Assembly (NCBI GenBank): GCA_964016885.1
Contig: OZ024740.1
Coordinates: forward strand, 23,374,001-23,438,000
Origin: Eledone cirrhosa
Taxonomy: Eukaryota
Direction of reading: 5' to 3'
DNA: 64,000 nucleotides
Shown piece by piece: positions 3,437-64,000 of the stretch; positions within the stretch are counted from its first letter, which is position 1, and each line of letters opens with the position of its first letter. The position numbers and the translations under genes are program-made. The notes under the pieces were generated by a model. The model was given only the letters and a program-made list of their open reading frames with translations, made no database searches and was not told the DNA's origin.

Positions 3437-3632
3437 AACGAGTAGGACACCGGCGGCTGAGCTCAAGCCGTTTCGGCGGCTAATTCTGGATTAGTAGTCC
3501 AGAATTACCCGTCGAAACGGCTTGAGCTCAGCCGTCGGGGTCCTACTCGTTCCTATTATCCACTCTACTACCCTAAGTATTGAGTACTTTGGTGCGTTAT
3601 GGTCCACCTGGTTCCTTACCACATTTCCTTCG

Positions 3633-3634
<2 letters not shown>
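3435..3634 (+). mobile_element. family A hairpin+tail insertion in (TA)n
   Basis: GGAACGAGTAGG...CCTACTCGTTCC palindrome plus ~80-nt tail ending CATTTCCTTCGTT; near-identical copies at 20466, 29565 and 40275. Confidence 0.85.
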
Positions 3635-3678
<44 letters not shown>

Positions 3679-6782: not shown

Positions 6783-6980
6783 ATAAATAATAACAACAGT
6801 GACAAACAGGTACTCAAGTCTCGTTGGATTCTGGGCCCCAACTCATTCAGCCTGATAACAGGCTGAATGAATTGGGGCCCAGAACCCAACGAAACTTGAG
6901 TACCTCTTTATGTCACTGTTGTAATTATTTATACTAAACTCGTCCTGTTGACTGAGTGTTCTTACCTTTGGGTATTTCCA

Positions 6981-8716: not shown

Positions 8717-8757
8717 ACATAAATCTTTCGTTGCACATCTGCAACATCGTCAGTGGT
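8717..8757 (-). ncRNA. pLTR hammerhead candidate
   Basis: Minus strand: ACCA-CTGACGA-T-GTTGCA gatg TGCAAC-GAAA-GATT-TA-TGT; stem I is weak. Confidence 0.6.
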
Positions 8758-9025
8758 GTTATATTCATTGTTCCTCCTGTTGTGTTGTATGTCTACGCCA
8801 TTTTTTTTGTTCAATCTGTCTATATATTTATTTATTTATTTGCTTGTTTGTTTATCTTATTTTATTTTGTCTTCTTTGCGCATGCGTTTGCGTGTGTGTA
8901 TAGTGTTATGTGTGATGTGTGACTAGTGTGTATAGTGTTGTGTCTGCTGGGTGACTAGTGTGTGTTTATGTGCTTGTGTATGTATTTATTTATCTTATTT
9001 TATTTTATTTTATTTACTTATTTAT

Positions 9026-11925
9026 TTATACTTCTCTTAGGTCAGTGTTGTTTGTTTGGGTGTTGTTGTTGTTCCACTCATTCTTTCTGTTTAGCTTTGG
9101 TCTTCTAATTTCTATTTCACTGGCCTCTCTGATTTGCCTATCTGCTGGGTCATTCCTATGTTTAGATATTATTCTAATTTCTATGTTGTCTATGTTACCG
9201 TCATGTTGTTGTCTAGCATGTTCGTATAGTACTGACCCGTTTTTTCGTCCTTTTAGTTCCCCCCAGTGTTGGTCTATCCTTTCACCTATGCTGTCTCACC
9301 TATGTATGTTGTTGTCGTGTTTCTGCAAGTACCCTCTGTACATCTTATGCTATAGACTACGTTTCTAGTTTTACAGTTTATCCGGGGGTTCACCTTACAT
9401 ATGATACATTTCCTATTGGTACAGTGGGTTTTCTTAAAAGGGTAGGTTTTGCTGATCAGGGATTTTATGGTGGTTCCTGGCTTTTCTACCACCTTTATTT
9501 TTAAGTGGGTCTTTCTCAGGGCCTTTCTACACTGGTTAGCTAATTTCCCTCCAGGGGTGGCGTCCACAAACATGACACTCTGATATCTCTGGTTGTCGTA
9601 CCATGATGTGGCCTTCCCTATCTTATGTCTAGCCCTATCTAAGCTATTCCATGATTTGCTCCTGTATAGTGGGCAAATTCATTTCATGTCCAGTTCTATG
9701 AGGGTCTTATACTTTTCCATGGCTCCTTCGTATACTCTGACTCTGTCTCTTTGGTTGTAGCCAGAGAACTGCATGCGGTTGATGAAGCGTTGGATGTGTC
9801 CTTCCATTTCTGTTGGGTCGCACATGCTGGACACATTCTTCATCACTCGTACCAAATCTGCGATCAGAATATTAAACTTAGCACTACTGGACATTGCTGA
9901 GTTTTTGAGTATCAGGTATTTGGAGGCCATGGGTTTAGCATAGTGTGAGTGGAGAATTTGGGCTCTCTCGTCTATAGTGTTAATCCAGAGTTCTGTGTCT
10001 AATACAGGTAGTCTATTGTTAGGGTGTTTGGAAGGGAAGTCTATAGTTACAGTTATACTCTGGTGTATGGAATTAGCTATCTGCTGGATGCTTTCCATCG
10101 TGCTACGTTCTAAATCAAACTTGTTAGTGCTCTCTAGTGGGGGTGTTCTTATAACTATATTGATATCGTCTACATAACGAGAGTACATGATGAGGTCTAT
10201 GGAGCTTTCATTAAGGAGATCTTTAAGTCTCCTTTCCCACCATACCATGAAAAGGTTGGCAACATCACCAGCTATGCTGACGCCGATGGCTGCTCCCTCA
10301 TTTTGGGTGTAGATTTTCTCATTGAACTTAAATATGTGGCCCTTTAGGGTAGTTTTGATACTAGCCCCTATTGCATGTGCGACCATTTTTCTTACCTGAT
10401 CAGTGTTTTGGGGGGTCCGTATAGCTTTGGTCCACCCAATCCACCTTCCTATGGGAGTCTTTTTAGCCATTGAGGTTATGGTGGGGGGTCTACCTCTTAT
10501 AGGTCTACTAGGGCAGAAACATCTATGGTCATGGCTGTCTAGGTAGTCAGTGTCGTAGGTAAGTCTAAGTAGGAGGCCCAGTTCGTCTGTGTCGACGTCG
10601 CAGAACTCCACCTCACTCTCAATGATCATCTCCACACATCTTTTCACAGCAAAATCAATGTTAATGGATGGGTACAGTGACACCACATCCATGCTGCCTA
10701 TTATGCAGTTGGATAGGCTCCTGTTTTTGTTGCACTCACTGATTCTGCTGAGGAGGTCCTCTGTACTTTCACATACATCTGGGGACATCTTGATTATGGG
10801 GCGTATAACCATTGAGAGGAAGTAGGAGATCCTGTAGTTGCTAGCTATATTAGCTCCGCATACGGGTCTTGTTGGTGGTCCTGTTGTCGGGTCGTCGACT
10901 GTCTTGTGGTCTTTGCGGAGCCCATACAAGGGTGGTATGCCATTGTTAGACGCCTGGAAGTTGTTGGCAGTGCGTCTGCTTGGCTTTAGGATGTCAGTCC
11001 ACATCATCATGTGAGCGTTGAGGATTTTTTCTCTCCCATCGTGTGTTAGTTGTGCAACTTCGCTCGTGTTGGTGATGTGGGGTTGCATTGCCTCGATGTA
11101 GTTCGGCATGCTATCTATTGACATCCTACCAGACTTATCTGTGGGTAGACACACTACTTCACCATCCCTTGTGCGCTGCTTGAGGCTAACCAAGCCTTCT
11201 ACAGGTTTTATCCCAAGTTGTTGGGCCGCTGGTCTGCTCTGTCTCATAGTGTACCTGTCTACTACTTGTCTAATCTTATTTCTAGCTATGGTGAACTGTG
11301 CCTCCGTCTCGTCATCTATTTGCTGTGGTATGCAAACTCTTTTATTAAAGGGTAACCTCGTAGGATAGATATTACCCATCTTATATGTTTTGTCAGCTGG
11401 GTTGAAAAATAGTTTCTCTAAGGGGTTGTCGTTATTTCTATCGTCATAGTTGTGTGTGTTGCTATTATTGTTATCATGGTGGTTGTTGTTGTTTCTATCA
11501 TTAGCATTAATATTATTATTGTTATGATTGCTAGATGTATTGTTGTTTACTTCACCGTTATTTTTGTTGTTGTTGTTCGTATTGTTACCGTTATTACTAC
11601 TGTGGTCACTGTTGCTGTGTCTGTGGTTAACGTTTCTATTATTATTATTATTGTGGTTGTTGTTGTTCTGTCTATCGCTAGTATTATTACCATTATCACT
11701 ATTTCTCACTTTCCTGCCATTGTTATGGTTATGGCTGTTATTTCTATACCCAGAGTTATTTTTTATATTACTACTACCGTTATTATTGTTGTTGTTGTTT
11801 ACCTTTGCATTCCAACGTATTTTTGTGAAACACTTTTCCAGCTCCGTTTTGCATTCCATAGGGTTAATCTTTTTGTAGATGGCAAATTTTGGTGGTAACT
11901 TTAGGATTTGTTGTTCTTGTTCAAT
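9026..11925 (-). pseudogene. PLE RT-GIY-YIG polyprotein with one in-frame TGA (9679-9681) and one frameshift (~9290)
   Basis: TDKSG, PPLYGLRKDHK, RPVC, SMDVVSLYPSI, QNEGAAIG, RYVDDI, LPVLD; after the TGA: ICPLYR..MFVDATPGGKL..CTNRKCIIC..NVVYSIRC..YIGETA; shifted frame: IGERIDQH..RQIREA..LNRKNEW. Confidence 0.92.
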
Positions 11926-11981
11926 ATCTGTTTCGACACACGATTTCATATAAAAAACCTCGCAAAACTAATTCATCGCCG

Positions 11982-27589: not shown

Positions 27590-28580
27590 GGAGTAAGGGG
27601 GGAGTTCAGGCCGGGGGGAGTGTGGGTCTGTAAAATGAAGATAGTTCTTTGTTCGATTCTAAGGAGATTGGCGGGTGTTCCGTGGCATTGGAGTAGGCCA
27701 CAGACTGTGAGATGGCGTGCGGAATGTCCAGGGGCACCAAAGTGGCGGGTGATTGGGGAACTACCACCGAGACGAATATCCCGGAGGTGCTCAGTGAATC
27801 GGACCGCCAGGCGACGTCCCGTCTGTCCGACATAAGTCGTAGACTATGTTGGAGGAGGTGCAGCGGAAGGCATGCCGGACAGAGAGAGAGTGTGGCCGTT
27901 GGGACCCTGGAAGGTGGTGGTGTTGGTGATGTGGGGACAGGTGTTGCAGCGGGGCCTAGAACAGGGAAAGTAACCGGGGGGGAGGAAGAACGTGGGTTGA
28001 GGGTAGGGAGCTGTGAACGAGGAGGGTGCGGAGATTGCGTGCGCGTTTGAAGGAGGGGAGTGGTGGGGTTGGGAAGATGTGGGAGGTGGAGGGGTCGGAC
28101 TGGAGGCGTCGGAAGAGGCGGCGAATGGTGCGGTGGAGGGGTAAGGTGGAGGGGTGGTAGGTGATGGGGAAGGGGAGACGGTGGGTGGGTGTGCGGTGGC
28201 GTGGGGTGAGGGTGGTGGAACGGTGGACGGCACGGGCGCGGGTGAGAGCGGTGTGGACGAGAGAGGGGGGTAACCTCTGCGGATGAAATGGCTGACTAGG
28301 GAAAGGGCCTGGGACTCGAAGTCAGCATCTCGGCTACAGAGGCGGCGGATCCTGAGGAGTTGGGAGTAGGGAATGGAGTGTTTAGTGTGGGTGGGGTGAG
28401 AAGAGGTGAAGTCGTGGTAAGAGTGGGAGTCGGTGGGTTTGAAGAAGGCGGAGGTGACGAGGGAGTGGTGGGAGGGGTCGAAGGCGACGGAGATGTCTAA
28501 GAAGTGGACGTGGGTGGTGGAGATAGAGGTGAAGTGGAGGGAGGGGTGGAAGGAGCAGAAGAAGGAGAGGAAGGAGTCGA
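27590..28580 (-). pseudogene. PLE RT C-terminus plus GIY-YIG endonuclease, frameshifted
   Basis: HFLDI, FKPTDSHSY..SSHP..SIPYSQLLRIRRLCS..RGYP; FPCSRPRCNTCP; CTSSNIVY / YVGQTGRRLAVRFTEHLRDI..HF..E..PPGLN. Confidence 0.9.
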
Positions 28581-28582
28581 TA

Positions 28583-28651
<69 letters not shown>

Positions 28652-29074
28652 ATATATATATGTGTGTGTCTGTGTGTGTCTGTGTGTGTATATGCATAAG
28701 AAAAACACACAAACTCAGCCACACAGAAAGATAAGCCACATCCACACATATAGTACATTCTATTTGTAGGATATTTAAGAAACTAGTACTTTCATAGTCT
28801 TTGTTTATCAGAAGTTTTCATGTACGCCTAACAACACTAATTTTCCGACATGTGTACAGTGAAGATTAATGAGTAGAGTCCCTACATACAACTTATGAAA
28901 AGGGAAAATACATGCTTTTCTCAAAAACCATATGTAGCTGCTATGTGTTCAATATTCCATGAATGCCGTGTATATAAATTACCTCTATGTTTACATACTA
29001 AGGGATGTTTCTTCAGTAGTTACACACAAACACGCTATCTCTCTATACACACACACACGCACACACACACTCAC

Positions 29075-29564: not shown

Positions 29565-29694
29565 GGAACGAGTAGGACCCCGACGGCTGAGCTCAAGCCG
29601 TTTCTACTCGTTCCTATTACCCACTCTACTACCCTAAGTATTGAGTACTTTGGTGCGTTATGGTCCACCTGGTTCCTTACCACATTTCCTCCGT

Positions 29695-29695
<1 letters not shown>
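29565..29695 (+). mobile_element. family A insertion, internally shortened
   Basis: Same two termini as other copies; arms joined at TTTC|TACTCG. Confidence 0.85.
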
Positions 29696-29726
<31 letters not shown>

Positions 29727-31175: not shown

Positions 31176-31515
<340 letters not shown>

Positions 31516-31591
31516 TATGTATATGTATATATATATGGGGCGTGTAGCTGTTTTAATAAGCAAGGCTATATATATATATATATATATATAA

Positions 31592-32800
31592 ATGGAAAAA
31601 ATGAAACGAAATTTCATTTCTCATTCACTCTTAGTGCGGCTGTTACTTAAATATAAGTATGTATACGTACATACATATATGTATACAGACGTACAGTAGT
31701 ATGTATATATATATATACATGCACACATATATATATATATATATGTACGTATGGATTTACCGAACATTTATTATTATGCTCGGTTTGTTTGTAAACAAAC
31801 ATCCCGAATTAAGCCGTACAGTGTTTAGCAACCCAGTGTTCAACACTGACAAAGGAACAATGTATTAGCTTCAAGCTTATTAGTTATCGTCAGCAACGTA
31901 TACCTTCCTGTCAGATGATTGAACGTCTGAAAGTGTACACTTTCCTTATGCAAATTAACGGCTGAGCAGCCTAATTTGCATATCGAGTGAGTTCAGTCGG
32001 CCGGGCGCACCGAAAACGATAAACGGAAAAAAAGAAACGAAATTTCATTTCTCACCCACTCTTAGTACGGCTGTTACTTAAATATAAGTATGTATACGTA
32101 CATACATATATGTATACAGACGTACAGTAGTTTCAAGCTAATAAGCTTGAAACTAGTACATCGTTCCTTTGTCAGTGTTGAACAAAAGGGCAACGATGGT
32201 TGCTAAACATTGTACGGCTTAATTCGGGATGTTTGTTTACTAAAAAAACGAGCATTATAATAAATGTTCGGTAACTCCATACGTACATATATATATGTGT
32301 GCATGTGTATATATATATATACATACTACTGTACGTCTGTATACATATATGTATGTACGTATACATACTTATATTTAAGTAACAGCCGTACTAAGAGTGA
32401 GTGAGAAATGAAATTTCGTTTCATTTTTTCAATTTATCGTTTTCGGTGCGTCCGGCCGATTAACTCACTCGATATGCAAATTAGGCTGCTCAGCCGTTAA
32501 TATGCATAAGGAAAGTATATACTTTCAGACGTTCAATCATCTGGCAGGAAGGTAATAAGCTTGATAGCAAATAAACTTGAAACTAGTACATCTTTCCTTT
32601 GTCAGTGTTGAACAAAAGGGCAACGATGGTTGCTAAACACTGCACGGCTTAATTCGGGATGTTTGTTTACAAACAAACCGAGCATTATAATAAATGTTCG
32701 GTAAATCCATACGTACATATATATATATGTGTGCATGTATGTATATATATACATACTACTGTACGTCTGTATACATATATGTATGTACCTATACATACTT
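31592..32800. mobile_element. family I: non-coding ~431-bp hammerhead unit, tandem in both arms of an inversion
   Basis: AACGAAATTTCATTTC at ~31605 and ~32036; GAAACTAGTACA at 32150 and 32580; inversion at ~32128-32150. Confidence 0.9.
31857..31899 (-). ncRNA. type I hammerhead (this copy GAAG; consensus GAAA-CTAG-TA)
   Basis: Minus strand: ACGTTG-CTGACGA-TAACTAATAAGCTT-GAAG-CTAA-TA-CATTGT; inverted copies read AGCTT-GAAA-CTAG-TA-CATCGT. Confidence 0.7.
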
Positions 32801-32810
32801 ATATATATAG

Positions 32811-36093: not shown

Positions 36094-36230
36094 CGTTATT
36101 CCGGGTTGAATCGGAGGTAACCACAGTAAGTAAAGTACTCAATACATAGCAGAGTATAAAAGTTTTAATATTCCTGATGATTTCTAAAGAATGAAACAGT
36201 TCTAGTCCTGTAGAATTTCATCTATATTAA

Positions 36231-36263: not shown

Positions 36264-36270
<7 letters not shown>

Positions 36271-36853
36271 ATACTTTGGGAGGGTCATGTTGTTTGTTCT
36301 ATGTGCGTGTGTGATTTCATTTTGTCCTTAATTGTAAGTTGTGATGTTGCTGTTCCATTCATGTTCTATTCATGAATGGAACAGCAACATCACAACTTAC
36401 AATTAAGGACAAAATGAAAACACACACAGAACAAACAACCAACCAGTAACATGTAAATAAACAAATTAATAAACAAATCTAAACACACACAGACACCCGG
36501 ATGTAACACATGCGCAAACTAGGCACACAACACACACAAAAACAAGCTGGCGTAGGACAGAACAAAGGAGCGGCACAAAAACAAAGAAAAGAATCCCCAG
36601 TCACTGAAGAGATCACAGAATGTGTGACGAAAGAACTTTGACAATATATAAACAATCATCTGGTTGTGGAACCAACCAACCAACCGGAAATTTATAAATT
36701 CCTAAATTTATAAATTTATTATAATAAATTGAAGTGAAAGTTACTGGTGCGTATGTTTCTTATTGGCAACATGACCCTCCCAAAGTATAACAATATCGGT
36801 TTCAACACACGTTTTCAGATAAAAAATCTTGCTAAACAAATTCAGAAACGAAA
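36264..36853 (+). mobile_element. family C (Naiad-like 3' end) foldback insertion with tail
   Basis: TATTGTTATACTTTGGGAGGGTCAT/ATGACCCTCCCAAAGTATAACAATA ends; contains the last endonuclease codons (HEWNSNITTYN*), compare NEWNNN at ~9070. Confidence 0.88.
36600..36642 (+). ncRNA. type I hammerhead ribozyme
   Basis: GTCA-CTGAAGA-GATCACA gaatg TGTGAC-GAAA-GAAC-TT-TGAC. Confidence 0.75.
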
Positions 36854-36871
36854 TATATATATATATATATA

Positions 36872-37867: not shown

Positions 37868-37921
<54 letters not shown>

Positions 37922-38239
37922 AGGTGAGTTTTATTGTAGCACAATAAAGCAATGCAAATATCGGATAAGTAGCACTCTACAGTTTGTAGGACTGGAGTAT
38001 AAATAATATAAGATCAAAAGATGGGTAATAGAGTTCCAAGTATTTTATTATGCCCATTTCAAAAACAAATATCATCATGGGATGATATCTGCGTTCTCAT
38101 CAGATAAAATAGGGAGACATGATATGAAGCTTAAAAAACACTTGTGAGCAGTGAAGTTTTAAATCAACATATGAAAAATAAATTAAGATGGGTGTATGAG
38201 ATTGGGGGGGGGGGAGGTAAGGAAGAGGTAGAAATAACT

Positions 38240-38518
38240 GATACTAATTCTTTTACCTATTTCGGTTCCACTTCCACTTCCTTCAAAGCTAGATTTTATA
38301 ATCACAAATCGTCTTCGAAATACCAACTTGAAAGAACTAACACGGCACTCTCGGAACTCATATGGTCCTTAAAAGACAAACATATTAACTATAACATCTC
38401 TTGGAGGAAGGTTTGTTCCGCCTTTCCTTACCTGAATTCTTCCCTATCCAGAACATGTAATCTCTGCCTAGCCGAGAAATTTACCATTATATCTAATTTC
38501 AATTCTATAATAAATTGA
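38240..38518 (+). pseudogene. GIY-YIG endonuclease fragment with C-terminal CxLC..EK motif
   Basis: YFGSTSTSFKARFYNHKSS..TALSELIWSLK..ISW..CNLCLAEKFTI. Confidence 0.8.
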
Positions 38519-39734
38519 CGCACAGATTTATTTTCGCTCTGCTTGCATACATTCCATAGAACATTCCATAAAGTATTCAGCTAATATCTCAATACCCTAT
38601 TAGTTAAAATCCTCTTCTCTCAAAGGCTTATATATCTTTTACAAATATACCCATCTTTCTACCTTATTTCAGTATTATATATTATATAATACAATTTACT
38701 CATTCTATGTCATTCTTCTTTATCATTTTCCTTTCTTCCTTTTTTCTTTTTTAATTTCTAATCTCTAATCTGTACTTTTTCTTCCCAATTACTTCTCAAT
38801 TCATATTATTACTCACTACAGCATTATCCATTCTTCCATCTTTCCTCATATTATTGGCCATTAAAACTATATTTTTTTAATACATTATAATATTACCATT
38901 AGAAGATTTCCGTAAAACATATAAACTTTTTTGACGTTAGATATTCTTTTCTTCTTTCTTCTCTCCTTCCCTGCTCGTTTTAAACCCACTACTTACTTTT
39001 ACTTTTACATATTACAATACATAAAAACAAACTTAAACCCCAACTTATTTCTTTTTAATATTTTATAATATTACCATTAGAAAATATTTCGTAAACATAT
39101 ATACTTTTTGACGTTAGATATTTTCTTCCTTAAACATTCTTTTTCTTCTCTCCTTCCATACTCATTTTAAACATACTATTTACGTATACATATTACAATA
39201 CATAATAACAAGCTTAAATCCTAACTAATTCCTCTAAATTCATAACTCATTTATTCTTCTCCTTCTTTTCACATTATATCCTTAATATCCTTAATATTTT
39301 TATCTTAATAATACATATTAATAAATTCTTTTCTTCGCACATATTATTAACCCCTTCAATATACAAACCTTAATTTAATACTATTCTTAATTCCTTTTTC
39401 TTCATGCATACACCTCATTAACTTTTAACTTCAAAATCTTTTAAATTATCTATTATCTTCCAACGGTGTTTTAATTTCTTTCTGTGAGACAATATTTTCT
39501 CAGTTGTAAAGGCTATCTCTCTCTCTCTCTATCACCCATTTCTCCTCCTCTCTCATCTTTCGTTCCTATACTCCTCCGCCACCATCCTTTACTCTTATTT
39601 CTTCCTCTTCCTTACCCCCAACCCCACCCCGCACTTTTTCCCAATCTCATACATCCATCTTAATTTATTTTTCATATGTTGATTTAAAAATACACTGCTC
39701 ACACGTGTTTTTTAAGCTTCATATCATGTCTCCC

Positions 39735-39805
39735 TATTTTATCTGATGAGAACGCAGATATCATCCCATGATGATATTTGTTTTTGAAATGCGCATAATA
39801 AAATA
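39735..39805 (+). ncRNA. intact type I hammerhead ribozyme (mirror copy 38041-38111 on the minus strand)
   Basis: TATTTTAT-CTGATGA-GAACGCAGATATCATC ccat GATGATATTTGTTTTT-GAAA-TGCGCA-TA-ATAAAATA. Confidence 0.9.
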
Positions 39806-39833
39806 CTTGGAACTCTTTTAACCAACTTTTGAT

Positions 39834-40237
<404 letters not shown>

Positions 40238-40274: not shown

Positions 40275-40462
40275 GGAACGAGTAGGACCCCGACGGCTGA
40301 GCTCAAGCCGTTTCGACGTCTAATGAGTCCAGAATTAGCCGTCGAAACGGCTTGAGCTCAGCCGTCGGGGTCCTACTCGTTCCTATTACCCACACTACAA
40401 CCCTAAGTATTGAGTACTTTGGTGCGTTATGGTCCACCTGGTTCCTTACCACATTTCCTCCG

Positions 40463-40464
<2 letters not shown>
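40275..40464 (+). mobile_element. family A insertion retaining most of a hammerhead
   Basis: CTAATGA-G..C-GAAA-CGGCT tgagctc AGCCG-TC-GGGGTCCT at 40320-40374, with a GUC cleavage triplet. Confidence 0.85.
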
Positions 40465-40512
<48 letters not shown>

Positions 40513-40830: not shown

Positions 40831-40844
40831 ATATATATATATAT

Positions 40845-41007
40845 AACGAAGGAAGTGTGGTAAGGAACCACGTGTACCGTAACGCACTTAGGGTAATAGA
40901 GTGGGTAATAGGAAAATGTTCAAGACCCCGAACGTAGGCTCAAGCTGTTTCGACGGCTATTTCTTAGTCCAGCATGAGCTCTGCCGTCGGGGTCTTGAAT
41001 ATTTTCC
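40845..41007 (-). mobile_element. family A variant
   Basis: AACGAAGGAAGTGTGGTAAGGAACCA is the reverse-complemented tail; GGAAAATGTTCAAGACCCCG/CGGGGTCTTGAATATTTTCC arms. Confidence 0.8.
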
Positions 41008-41144
41008 TATATACATATATATATACATGTGTGTGTGAGAGTGCGTGTGCGAATCTGTATATAGGAGAGAGAATTGTGAAAGGTGAAAACGAGAAGTAGA
41101 ATCTATTCTGAGGAGTTGGAGTAAAGTTTGCTGCTTTGCAATAA

Positions 41145-47375
<6,231 letters not shown>

Positions 47376-63171: not shown

Positions 63172-63217
<46 letters not shown>

Positions 63218-63219
<2 letters not shown>

Positions 63220-64000
63220 AATTGGAGCTCTGAAATAGCAATATATATATGGATGTATATATAATGTATTTTGCAATACACTTTATGCTTACTTAAAAGC
63301 ATTTTGAAGACCGTAAGCTATTGTTTTAAAGTAGTGACAAATTCACTTACTTTGATCTCAGCAAACAGGGGAGATAAGCCGACATGTCTTGTTTCGCTTT
63401 GGTTGAAGCTTATCAAGGCCAACTACCCCTCCTGTCTACCGAGATCACTGATGTTATATTCTTATAGAAATCTAGTAAATAATCAGGAGCTGATTATGCA
63501 GAGCGGTTGTTGGTCAGGCAGAAATTAAAAATTAGAATTGGAGCTCTGAAATAGCAATATATATATGGATGTATATATAATGTATTTTGCAATACACTTT
63601 ATGCTTAATTAAAAGCATTTTGAAGACCGTAAGCTATTGTTTTAAAGTAGTGACAAATTCACTTACTTTGATCTCAGCAAACAGGGGAGATAAGCCGACA
63701 AGTCTTGATTCGCTTTGGTTGAAGCTTATCAAGGCCAACTACCCCTCCTGTCTACCGAGATCACTGATGTTATATTCTTATAGAAATCTAGTAAATAATC
63801 AGGAGCTGATTATGCAGAGCAGTTGTTGGTCAGGCAGAAATTAAAAATTAGAATTGGAGCTTCAAAATGCTTTTAATTAAGCATAAAGTGTATTGCAAAA
63901 TACATTATATATACATCCATATATATATTGCTATTTCAGAGCTCCAATTCTAATTTATAATTTCTGCCTGACCAACAACCACTCTGCATAATCAGCTCCT
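63218..64000. mobile_element. family N: non-coding 316-bp tandem hammerhead-like unit followed by an inverted arm that runs off the window
   Basis: AGAATTGGAGCT at 63218, 63534 and 63850; inversion at ~63860; starts at (TA)n. Confidence 0.88.
63378..63419 (-). ncRNA. hammerhead fold with variant core TTGATAA (second copy 63694-63735)
   Basis: Minus strand: GCC-TTGATAA-GCTT caacca AAGC-GAAA-CAAG a C(A/T)TG-TC-GGC. Confidence 0.6.

Follow-up and report, generated by a model that had tools for sequence, protein, structure and literature searches.

The window analysed here is a 64,000-nt stretch of Eledone cirrhosa contig OZ024740.1, from a genome of 3.0 Gb. Self-comparison of the window delimited a feature at 31588-32807 with head-to-head arms within (TA)n. 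It is a single old copy of family I, a hammerhead repeat of 430 bp that is non-coding and present in high copy number. A first-pass annotation had placed this feature at 31592..32800; the feature stands, and its exact limits are corrected here. Both arms of the inversion hold more than one unit, as that annotation had noted: a left arm of 1.25 units on the minus strand (31588..32131) and a right arm of 1.56 units on the plus strand (32136..32807) meet at a junction of 4 extra bases (32132..32135) between the two 5'-truncated arms. Its 431-bp unit likewise agrees with a window period of 430 bp from cut to cut and 431 bp from tail to tail, and with a family consensus of 430. With unit positions (c) numbered from the hammerhead cut site, the 3' end of the left arm is the tail-bearing end A (c275) and that of the right arm is the tail-less end B (c~219), each lying against (TA)n.

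The insertion carries three hammerhead copies, described earlier as each damaged in a different way. This was true of two of them, while the first copy of the right arm is merely truncated by the junction, and the family consensus is intact as had been claimed. The left-arm type I copy (31855..31908, minus strand) retains CUGACGA (31887-31893) and carries A15.1>G, G16.2>A and a change in stem II. The truncated copy is a 3' half (32136..32167, plus strand) with GAAACTAGT at 32149-32157 and a predicted cut after 32158, its 5' half having been lost to the junction. In the remaining copy (32547..32597, plus strand) CUGACGA is replaced, and GAAACTAGT at 32579-32587 precedes a predicted cut after 32588. 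A U6-like upstream element, TATGCAAATTAG, which includes an octamer and would form the 5' side of a hairpin in the predicted RNA, lies at 32473..32490 on the plus strand and is followed after 42 nt by a TATA-like box (32515..32521, plus strand); its left-arm counterpart is at 31965..31982 on the minus strand (octamer 31974-31981). The tail hairpin, a T run and TTTATCG, the motif inside which end A of other copies falls, occur internally at 32405..32439 on the plus strand; the left arm has an internal TTTATCG and tail hairpin at 32017..32051 and a terminal tail hairpin at 31603..31620, both on the minus strand. The end B motif TACTTATAT (32796..32804, plus strand) forms the 5' side of a small hairpin that is also found in a sister family, H. 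An H insertion with a 467-nt unit occupies 24108..25008 of the window, with a minus arm at 24108-24796 (end B), a plus arm at 24797-25008 (end A) and an intact hammerhead near 24333-24390 on the minus strand. The family I insertion of the window is near consensus, and with no variant common to its copies it is uninformative on the template.

Elsewhere in the genome, a family I 22-mer has 20,751 exact matches and a ribozyme 27-mer of the same family has 1,524 (reversed controls, 0 in both cases), and a family H 27-mer has 5,180. The 430-nt family I consensus was derived from 97 distinct units of 409-454 nt, which have a mean identity to it of 94.5%. The suggestion that I is a relative of H was borne out, as the two consensuses align along their full length with 62.6% identity and a score of 211, above the maxima of shuffled AT-rich controls: z was 17.5 against dinucleotide shuffles (-53+/-15, max 3, n=1000), 13.6 against local-block shuffles (-2+/-16, max 43, n=500) and still 12 when the AT-rich middle was left out. 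Even the raw copies of I and H in the window score 180, compared with a maximum of 24 among 600 real window segments. The proposed common order of motifs was also recovered, running through TTTATCG, ACTCAC..ATGCAAATTAG, GGAAG..TA, GAAACTAGT and the GAAAT..TTTCGTTTC hairpin. Predicted circular folds have the same branched layout in I and H (z -8.4 and -12, respectively, with self-complementary AT-rich stems accounting for part of these values). A further tandem repeat, family J (63217-64000), has a period of about 316-318, two units plus an inverted arm, and an HH9 match of 29.6 bits at 63358-63433 on the minus strand. It was rejected as a clear relative, with local scores of 34 and 44 against shuffle maxima of 57 and 47 and with the octamer missing.

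Tiling found nothing other than unit sequence between the (TA)n flanks of I insertions, and the unit contains no ORF of 120 aa and has a local GC of about 0.3. Canonical I arms exceed one unit in 34 of 99 cases, and a search for arrays of more than two units, suggested by the first-pass annotation, found family I arrays of at least 22 units. Family I has genomic properties by which non-LTR retrozymes are recognised, namely high-copy tandem non-coding units of 150-450 bp with a type I hammerhead in each, GC below 50% and neither LTR structure nor ORF. We class I as a new non-LTR retrozyme family, likely mobilised from RNA circles by Penelope-like retrotransposons (PLEs). We found no published account of families I and H; the supplements of PMC7229834 and of the preprint of Li et al. 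2026 (10.64898/2026.07.22.740005) may list cephalopod retrozymes, and the words hammerhead, ribozyme and retrozyme are absent from the main text of an octopus repeat annotation.

The I consensus is a type I hammerhead with CUGACGA, a helix II closed by a U-U pair, GAAAC UA and a GUA cut triplet, and each core position of the consensus is kept in at least 81 of about 87 insertions. The axolotl HHR_Amex2 likewise has a U-U mismatch where helix II begins. Since helix III is the palindrome ACUAGU, cleavage would probably take place as a dimer. Helices I and II differ in sequence between I and H with pairing kept. Within I, one helix I pair is U-G in 56 of 133 copies, G-U in 44, A-U in 24 and unpaired in 9, the three paired classes corresponding to three subfamilies and hence to few independent events. 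No inherited core change was present among 125 distinct H variants. Together, these patterns predict a self-cutting hammerhead under selection in both families. Its type I core was found on the sense strand only when both strands were scanned. Against Rfam HH9, H scores 37.7 bits (gathering score 52); for I, no Rfam hammerhead match was present at E<=0.001 in the loci L003 and L007 or among the matches listed for the window. Rfam microRNA matches were dismissed as AT-repeat artefacts.

We next consider the ends of the insertions, using 71 I loci taken in chromosomal order with 8 overlapping duplicates dropped. Out of 115 arms, 54 end at A (c275), 45 at B (c~219) and 16 elsewhere, mostly against (TA)n; A and B are about 56 nt apart, and 5' ends are scattered. 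There were 32 head-to-head pairs; both ends could be classed in 22, and every one of these combines one A with one B (p 2e-7). In family H, where 60 of the loci had been chosen by their A end, 48 pairs were A+B, none had the same end twice and 5 were unclassed. A second set of I loci, of which 55 of 90 were kept after duplicates and large arrays were dropped, gave A+B in 15 of 20 classed pairs, with 12 unclassed; the exceptions were two genuine A+A pairs, two B+B pairs with one interrupted end and one locus-edge artefact. End A falls within TTTATCG, which is conserved, and end B coincides with a small hairpin that is conserved as well; the two are separated by the GAAAT..TTTCGTTTC hairpin. The flanks on both sides are (TA)n, where target-site duplications are unreadable. 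In addition to this bias toward microsatellite or AT-rich targets, seen in mostly (TA)n 3' flanks of I, both families show the fixed 3' ends, 5' truncation, inverted 5' copy and one-sided tail of PLEs. Published descriptions place the PLE tail at one end only (PMC8557442, PMC3846280), and a purified PLE used two adjacent internal reverse transcription start sites on both DNA strands in vitro (PMC11167929). Two fixed ends, one of each per two-armed insertion, are on this evidence from genomic copies a Penelope-like tail and inversion signature, and we regard PLE-type mobilisation of family I as highly probable.

L1 twin priming offers a related model, in which two target strands prime on one RNA to give a 5' inversion. 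There the second primer is placed at a variable internal site beside the 5' end of the first arm, whereas insertions of I and H have fixed outer ends on both sides and variable inner ends.

What served as template was addressed by comparing units within and between insertions. Within I insertions, opposite arms diverged by 4.4% when compared in register and by 4.6% when compared out of register, and successive units by 5.1%, against 8.4% between loci, indicating that both arms and all units derive from one monomer sequence. Same-strand pieces at one locus, mostly neighbouring independent insertions, diverge by 9.8%, and pooling all I data gave 4.0%, 3.3% and 4.2% for the three within-insertion comparisons. 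In young H insertions, up to about 7+17 units are identical and carry variants specific to their locus. The cut site is not a preferred stopping point of reverse transcription: in I, 9 5' ends fell there per 1,783 nt versus 84 per 27,601 elsewhere (p 0.10), and in H there were 5 versus 2.9 expected over 137 crossings. This pattern supports reverse transcription of a circular monomer better than of a mixed linear multimer, and from the copies alone a circular one-unit RNA seems the probable template. The related proposal that arms longer than a unit fit copying of a circular or multimeric RNA finds support as to the circle; array length fails as proof of rolling-circle copying, because higher-order patterns (L077, L153, L158 and L109-L111) reveal that arrays also grow after insertion. 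Three of these loci (L109, L110 and L111) are I satellites that extend across 9.9-kb stretches with at least 22 units, adjacent divergence of 7.6-11.8% and many damaged ribozyme cores.

Rare variants offer another record of the template. Those common to successive H units are skewed toward A>G over T>C (26 to 3, p 2e-5), compared with 26:26 among singletons. Some insertions carry clusters; one H locus (L222) has 10 clustered A>G changes, of which seven fall in a segment that occurs in three copies, the end copies included. Such a skew is what repeated copying of one A-to-I edited RNA molecule would give; for its unclustered part, transcription-linked mutation bias in the source loci is an alternative. 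In I the skew is weak, at 9:2, 12:3, 12:5 and 13:7 as the rarity cut-off is loosened (p 0.03 to 0.13). It is absent from the second I set taken alone, and extra I loci did not strengthen it, these having been chosen by similarity to low-variant copies and thus with a bias against edited ones. In five I insertions, more than one copy carries the same core change (G12C, A6G, C3U and, twice, G16.2C; about 3 expected from rare variants), so that ribozyme-damaged templates seem to have been copied in some insertions. Recurrent inherited A>G changes that stay rare were seen in the H U6-like word (h337 and h341-343) at L151, L221 and L222. This rarity is expected if edited copies lose their promoter.

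The longest word common to I and H outside the AT-rich stem is TATGCAAATTAG, which resembles an element upstream of host U6 genes. TATGC[AT]AAT[TG]AG, which covers the word and a one-letter variant of it, occurs at -77 to -79 in three of five distinct host U6 loci, with a TATA box at -31 (background, 1 match in 413 kb), and the I/H word is identical at 12 of 12 positions to that at -78 of one of these (L397). The other two are L396 and the array at L398, where 5 of the 11 copies fetched carry it, and it was absent from the U6 loci L409 and L410 and from 15 of 15 U2 loci, where no U2-type promoter match was found. The upstream element is thus shared with U6-type genes while its spacing is not, the TATA-like box following after 42 nt in both I and H versus 46-48 in host U6 genes. 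With the box at this distance, the transcription start would fall just before the ribozyme. These matches support a putative U6-like promoter element within the I/H unit. A T5-T7 run, present in 315 of 369 I tails, would be expected to terminate the majority of Pol III transcripts short of a full unit; because end A lies beyond this run, the templates did read through it. The word doubles as a hairpin arm in the predicted RNA fold. The host genes themselves form tandem arrays of U6-variant and U2 genes (L398-L408 and L383-L395), and 6 of 11 fetched copies of the U6 array lacked the upstream word as searched.

Family I is, in the reading we consider likely, a non-autonomous passenger of a PLE, copied from a circular one-unit RNA. 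Transcription would start just before the ribozyme from the U6-like element and TATA box inside the unit, which match host motifs and are presumed active, and would read through to the next hammerhead. Cleavage and host ligation, by analogy with other animal retrozymes, would then yield a monomer circle. A PLE endonuclease/reverse transcriptase may nick (TA)n and use each of the DNA ends as a primer, at c275 and c~219, which flank the tail hairpin and to which the fixed ends and their pairing in two-armed insertions point. Each polymerase would circle the same template past the cut site and halt at a variable point, consistent with the copy pattern, and the two cDNAs would be joined head to head through the short homologies or small fills that are seen at junctions. 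Some arrays later expand at the DNA level, as the higher-order patterns show. The motifs shared by I and H had been interpreted as cis-elements of a non-coding replicon. Roles can indeed be assigned to them (strands of the ribozyme, both boundaries of the insertion with the tail hairpin in between, and the U6-like word, with one conserved motif probably acting at the DNA level), and non-autonomous retroelement, of a class already known, describes the whole better than replicon. None of the results pointed to RNA-to-RNA replication.

Other explanations differ from this passenger model in the template, in the second arm or in the need for RNA at all. The most serious keeps PLE-type mobilisation and takes as template a linear, uncleaved multi-unit transcript of a homogeneous array, with uniformity arising by DNA-level expansion and conversion. 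Post-insertion expansion is real, H arrays of about 24 identical units are possible sources, and the inherited core damage of the five I insertions would fit such a template. In vitro work on PAc adds that unprocessed RNA is the main substrate and that ribozyme mutants had no effect on insertion (PMC11167929), the latter result counting against a circle-templated PLE passenger. A linear multimer nevertheless predicts an excess of in-register similarity between arms that we did not find (triples 4 vs 2 in I and 0 vs 0 in H), and partly cleaved multimers should pile up 5' ends at the cut site, where there is no such pile-up. Clustered A>G changes also occur in every unit of short H arms, end copies too, and unit-specific changes are symmetric. 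We hold this template to be unlikely. Less likely again is an inverted arm made by fold-back, with the first cDNA or an antisense template priming itself in place of a second target-primed reaction. This hypothesis has been put forward for Penelope (PMC3846280) and would explain variants common to both arms. It may account for a minority of junctions, since the two arms have 5' ends no more than 12 nt apart in 2 of 22 I pairs and 8 of 48 H pairs, compared with about 5-6% by chance. Simple fold-back cannot produce pairs in which neither arm is contained in the other, as in 9 of 22 I pairs (that of the window included) and 10 of 48 H pairs, and outer ends that are both fixed and both against (TA)n also argue against it.

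Spread at the DNA level, in which a satellite or repeat moves by recombination or as an excised DNA circle and RNA plays no part, would account for arrays of at least 22 units with higher-order structure. It is largely refuted by the asymmetry of fixed 3' and variable 5' ends, and it fits poorly with (TA)n targets, dispersed short copies, the sense-strand A>G skew of inherited H variants and the covarying ribozyme stem, leaving it very improbable. We give still less credence to a viroid-like RNA that replicates from RNA to RNA and is occasionally captured in DNA. The strong circular folds of the unit, due in part to self-complementary AT-rich stems, would suit such an agent, yet the type I ribozyme is on one polarity only, a host U6-like word lies within the unit, and PLE-type ends mark thousands of loci.

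Among described systems, metazoan non-LTR retrozymes (PMC7229834; Li et al. 2026) are close to I and H: their tandem units are non-coding, measure a few hundred bp, are low in GC and each contain one type I hammerhead, copies number in the thousands, and PLEs co-occur with them. Tandem cDNA made by PLEs from circles is the route proposed by Cervera and de la Pena 2020 (PMC7229834). The descriptions of metazoan retrozymes drawn on here do not include arms set head to head, a pair of fixed ends, insertion into (TA)n, footprints of editing or a U6-like word inside the unit. Metazoan retrozyme RNAs have been detected by northern blot, whereas I and H are known here from the genome; Xenopus retrozymes resemble pLTRs, whereas I and H had no pLTR match in the 60 PLE loci compared. 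Endonuclease-containing PLEs (PMC8557442, PMC3846280) share with I and H the 5' truncation, partial tandems, inverted 5' copy, one-end tail, AT-rich or (TA)n targets and a hammerhead upstream of the 3' end, and the two adjacent start sites inferred for I and H have a parallel in the PLE assayed in vitro (PMC11167929). Unlike these PLEs, I and H have no ORF, many of their arms are multimers of the whole unit, and their tails are longer (about 56 nt in I and 70 nt in H versus 30-40). Newt satellite 2, as cited in PMC2220036 and PMC7229834, is like I a tandem hammerhead unit with a very short palindromic helix III; its reported internal promoter is of snRNA type and cited as Pol II, whereas I and H match host U6 and not U2.

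More tentatively, I and H could be self-promoted retrozymes that combine a captured U6-type element, editable monomer circles and paired PLE copying from two sites flanking the tail hairpin, a composite to which we give slightly less than even odds. If true, the genome would record, molecule by molecule, both the proposed passage of retrozyme circles into DNA and how the inverted and tailed structure of PLEs arises. The return of retrozymes to the genome has been proposed and not demonstrated, as the literature cited above presents it (PMC7229834; Li et al. 2026); two diverged families with thousands of insertions offer countable tests of this step and of how PLEs come to make inverted copies with a one-sided tail. 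Comparison of I with H pinpoints what the reverse transcriptase and the polymerase would need, namely two start sites around a hairpin, the ribozyme and the U6-like word, and these elements can be transferred directly into the existing in vitro PLE assay.

Candidate partner enzymes are plentiful, as PLE-like ORFs are abundant in the genome, in many of which a CxxC linker precedes GIY-YIG, an arrangement known from Neptune, and many of the PLE-like loci examined end in (TA)n. Apart from one nested I copy, no I/H homology was found in 60 such loci (30 of one PLE family and 30 GIY-YIG loci, 20 of the latter aligned), a small sample of more than 10,000 GIY-YIG candidates identified with Pfam. The window itself contains a broken PLE-like ORF at 9286-11967 on the minus strand, with a reverse transcriptase match, an N-rich N-terminus and a GIY-YIG-like end; it has (TA)n flanks and a hammerhead-like core near 8730-8760. 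What remains of a member of another PLE-like family, an abundant one for which a first look at the genome gave about 39,900 candidates, is located at 27448-28782 on the minus strand. A 5'-truncated PLE-like element at 37920-39840, flanked by (TA)n, combines a GIY-YIG-like frame (38135-38518) with a hammerhead-like motif near 39740-39800 and a 5' piece in inverted orientation.

Several other repeats in the window are associated with hammerhead-like motifs or (TA)n. One of them, present at 25246-25816 and 36267-36855 and associated with (TA)n, has inverted ends and a core, CTGAAGA..GAAA, that resembles a hammerhead, and a short hammerhead-bearing repeat at 36100-36230 recurs in many fetched loci. 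An abundant short repeat set in (TA)n, often as inverted pairs, occurs at 3529-3643, 20467-20657, 29565-29700, 31411-31515, 40275-40465 and 40836-41010. Near-perfect long hairpins lie at 6793-6922 and 36307-36427, and degraded LINE-like reading frames at 12513-17677 and 23047-23490. Finally, a 5-kb (AAC/ACC)n tract (42343-47308) is followed by 3.4 kb of a 17-bp satellite with the opposite strand skew (48026-51464).
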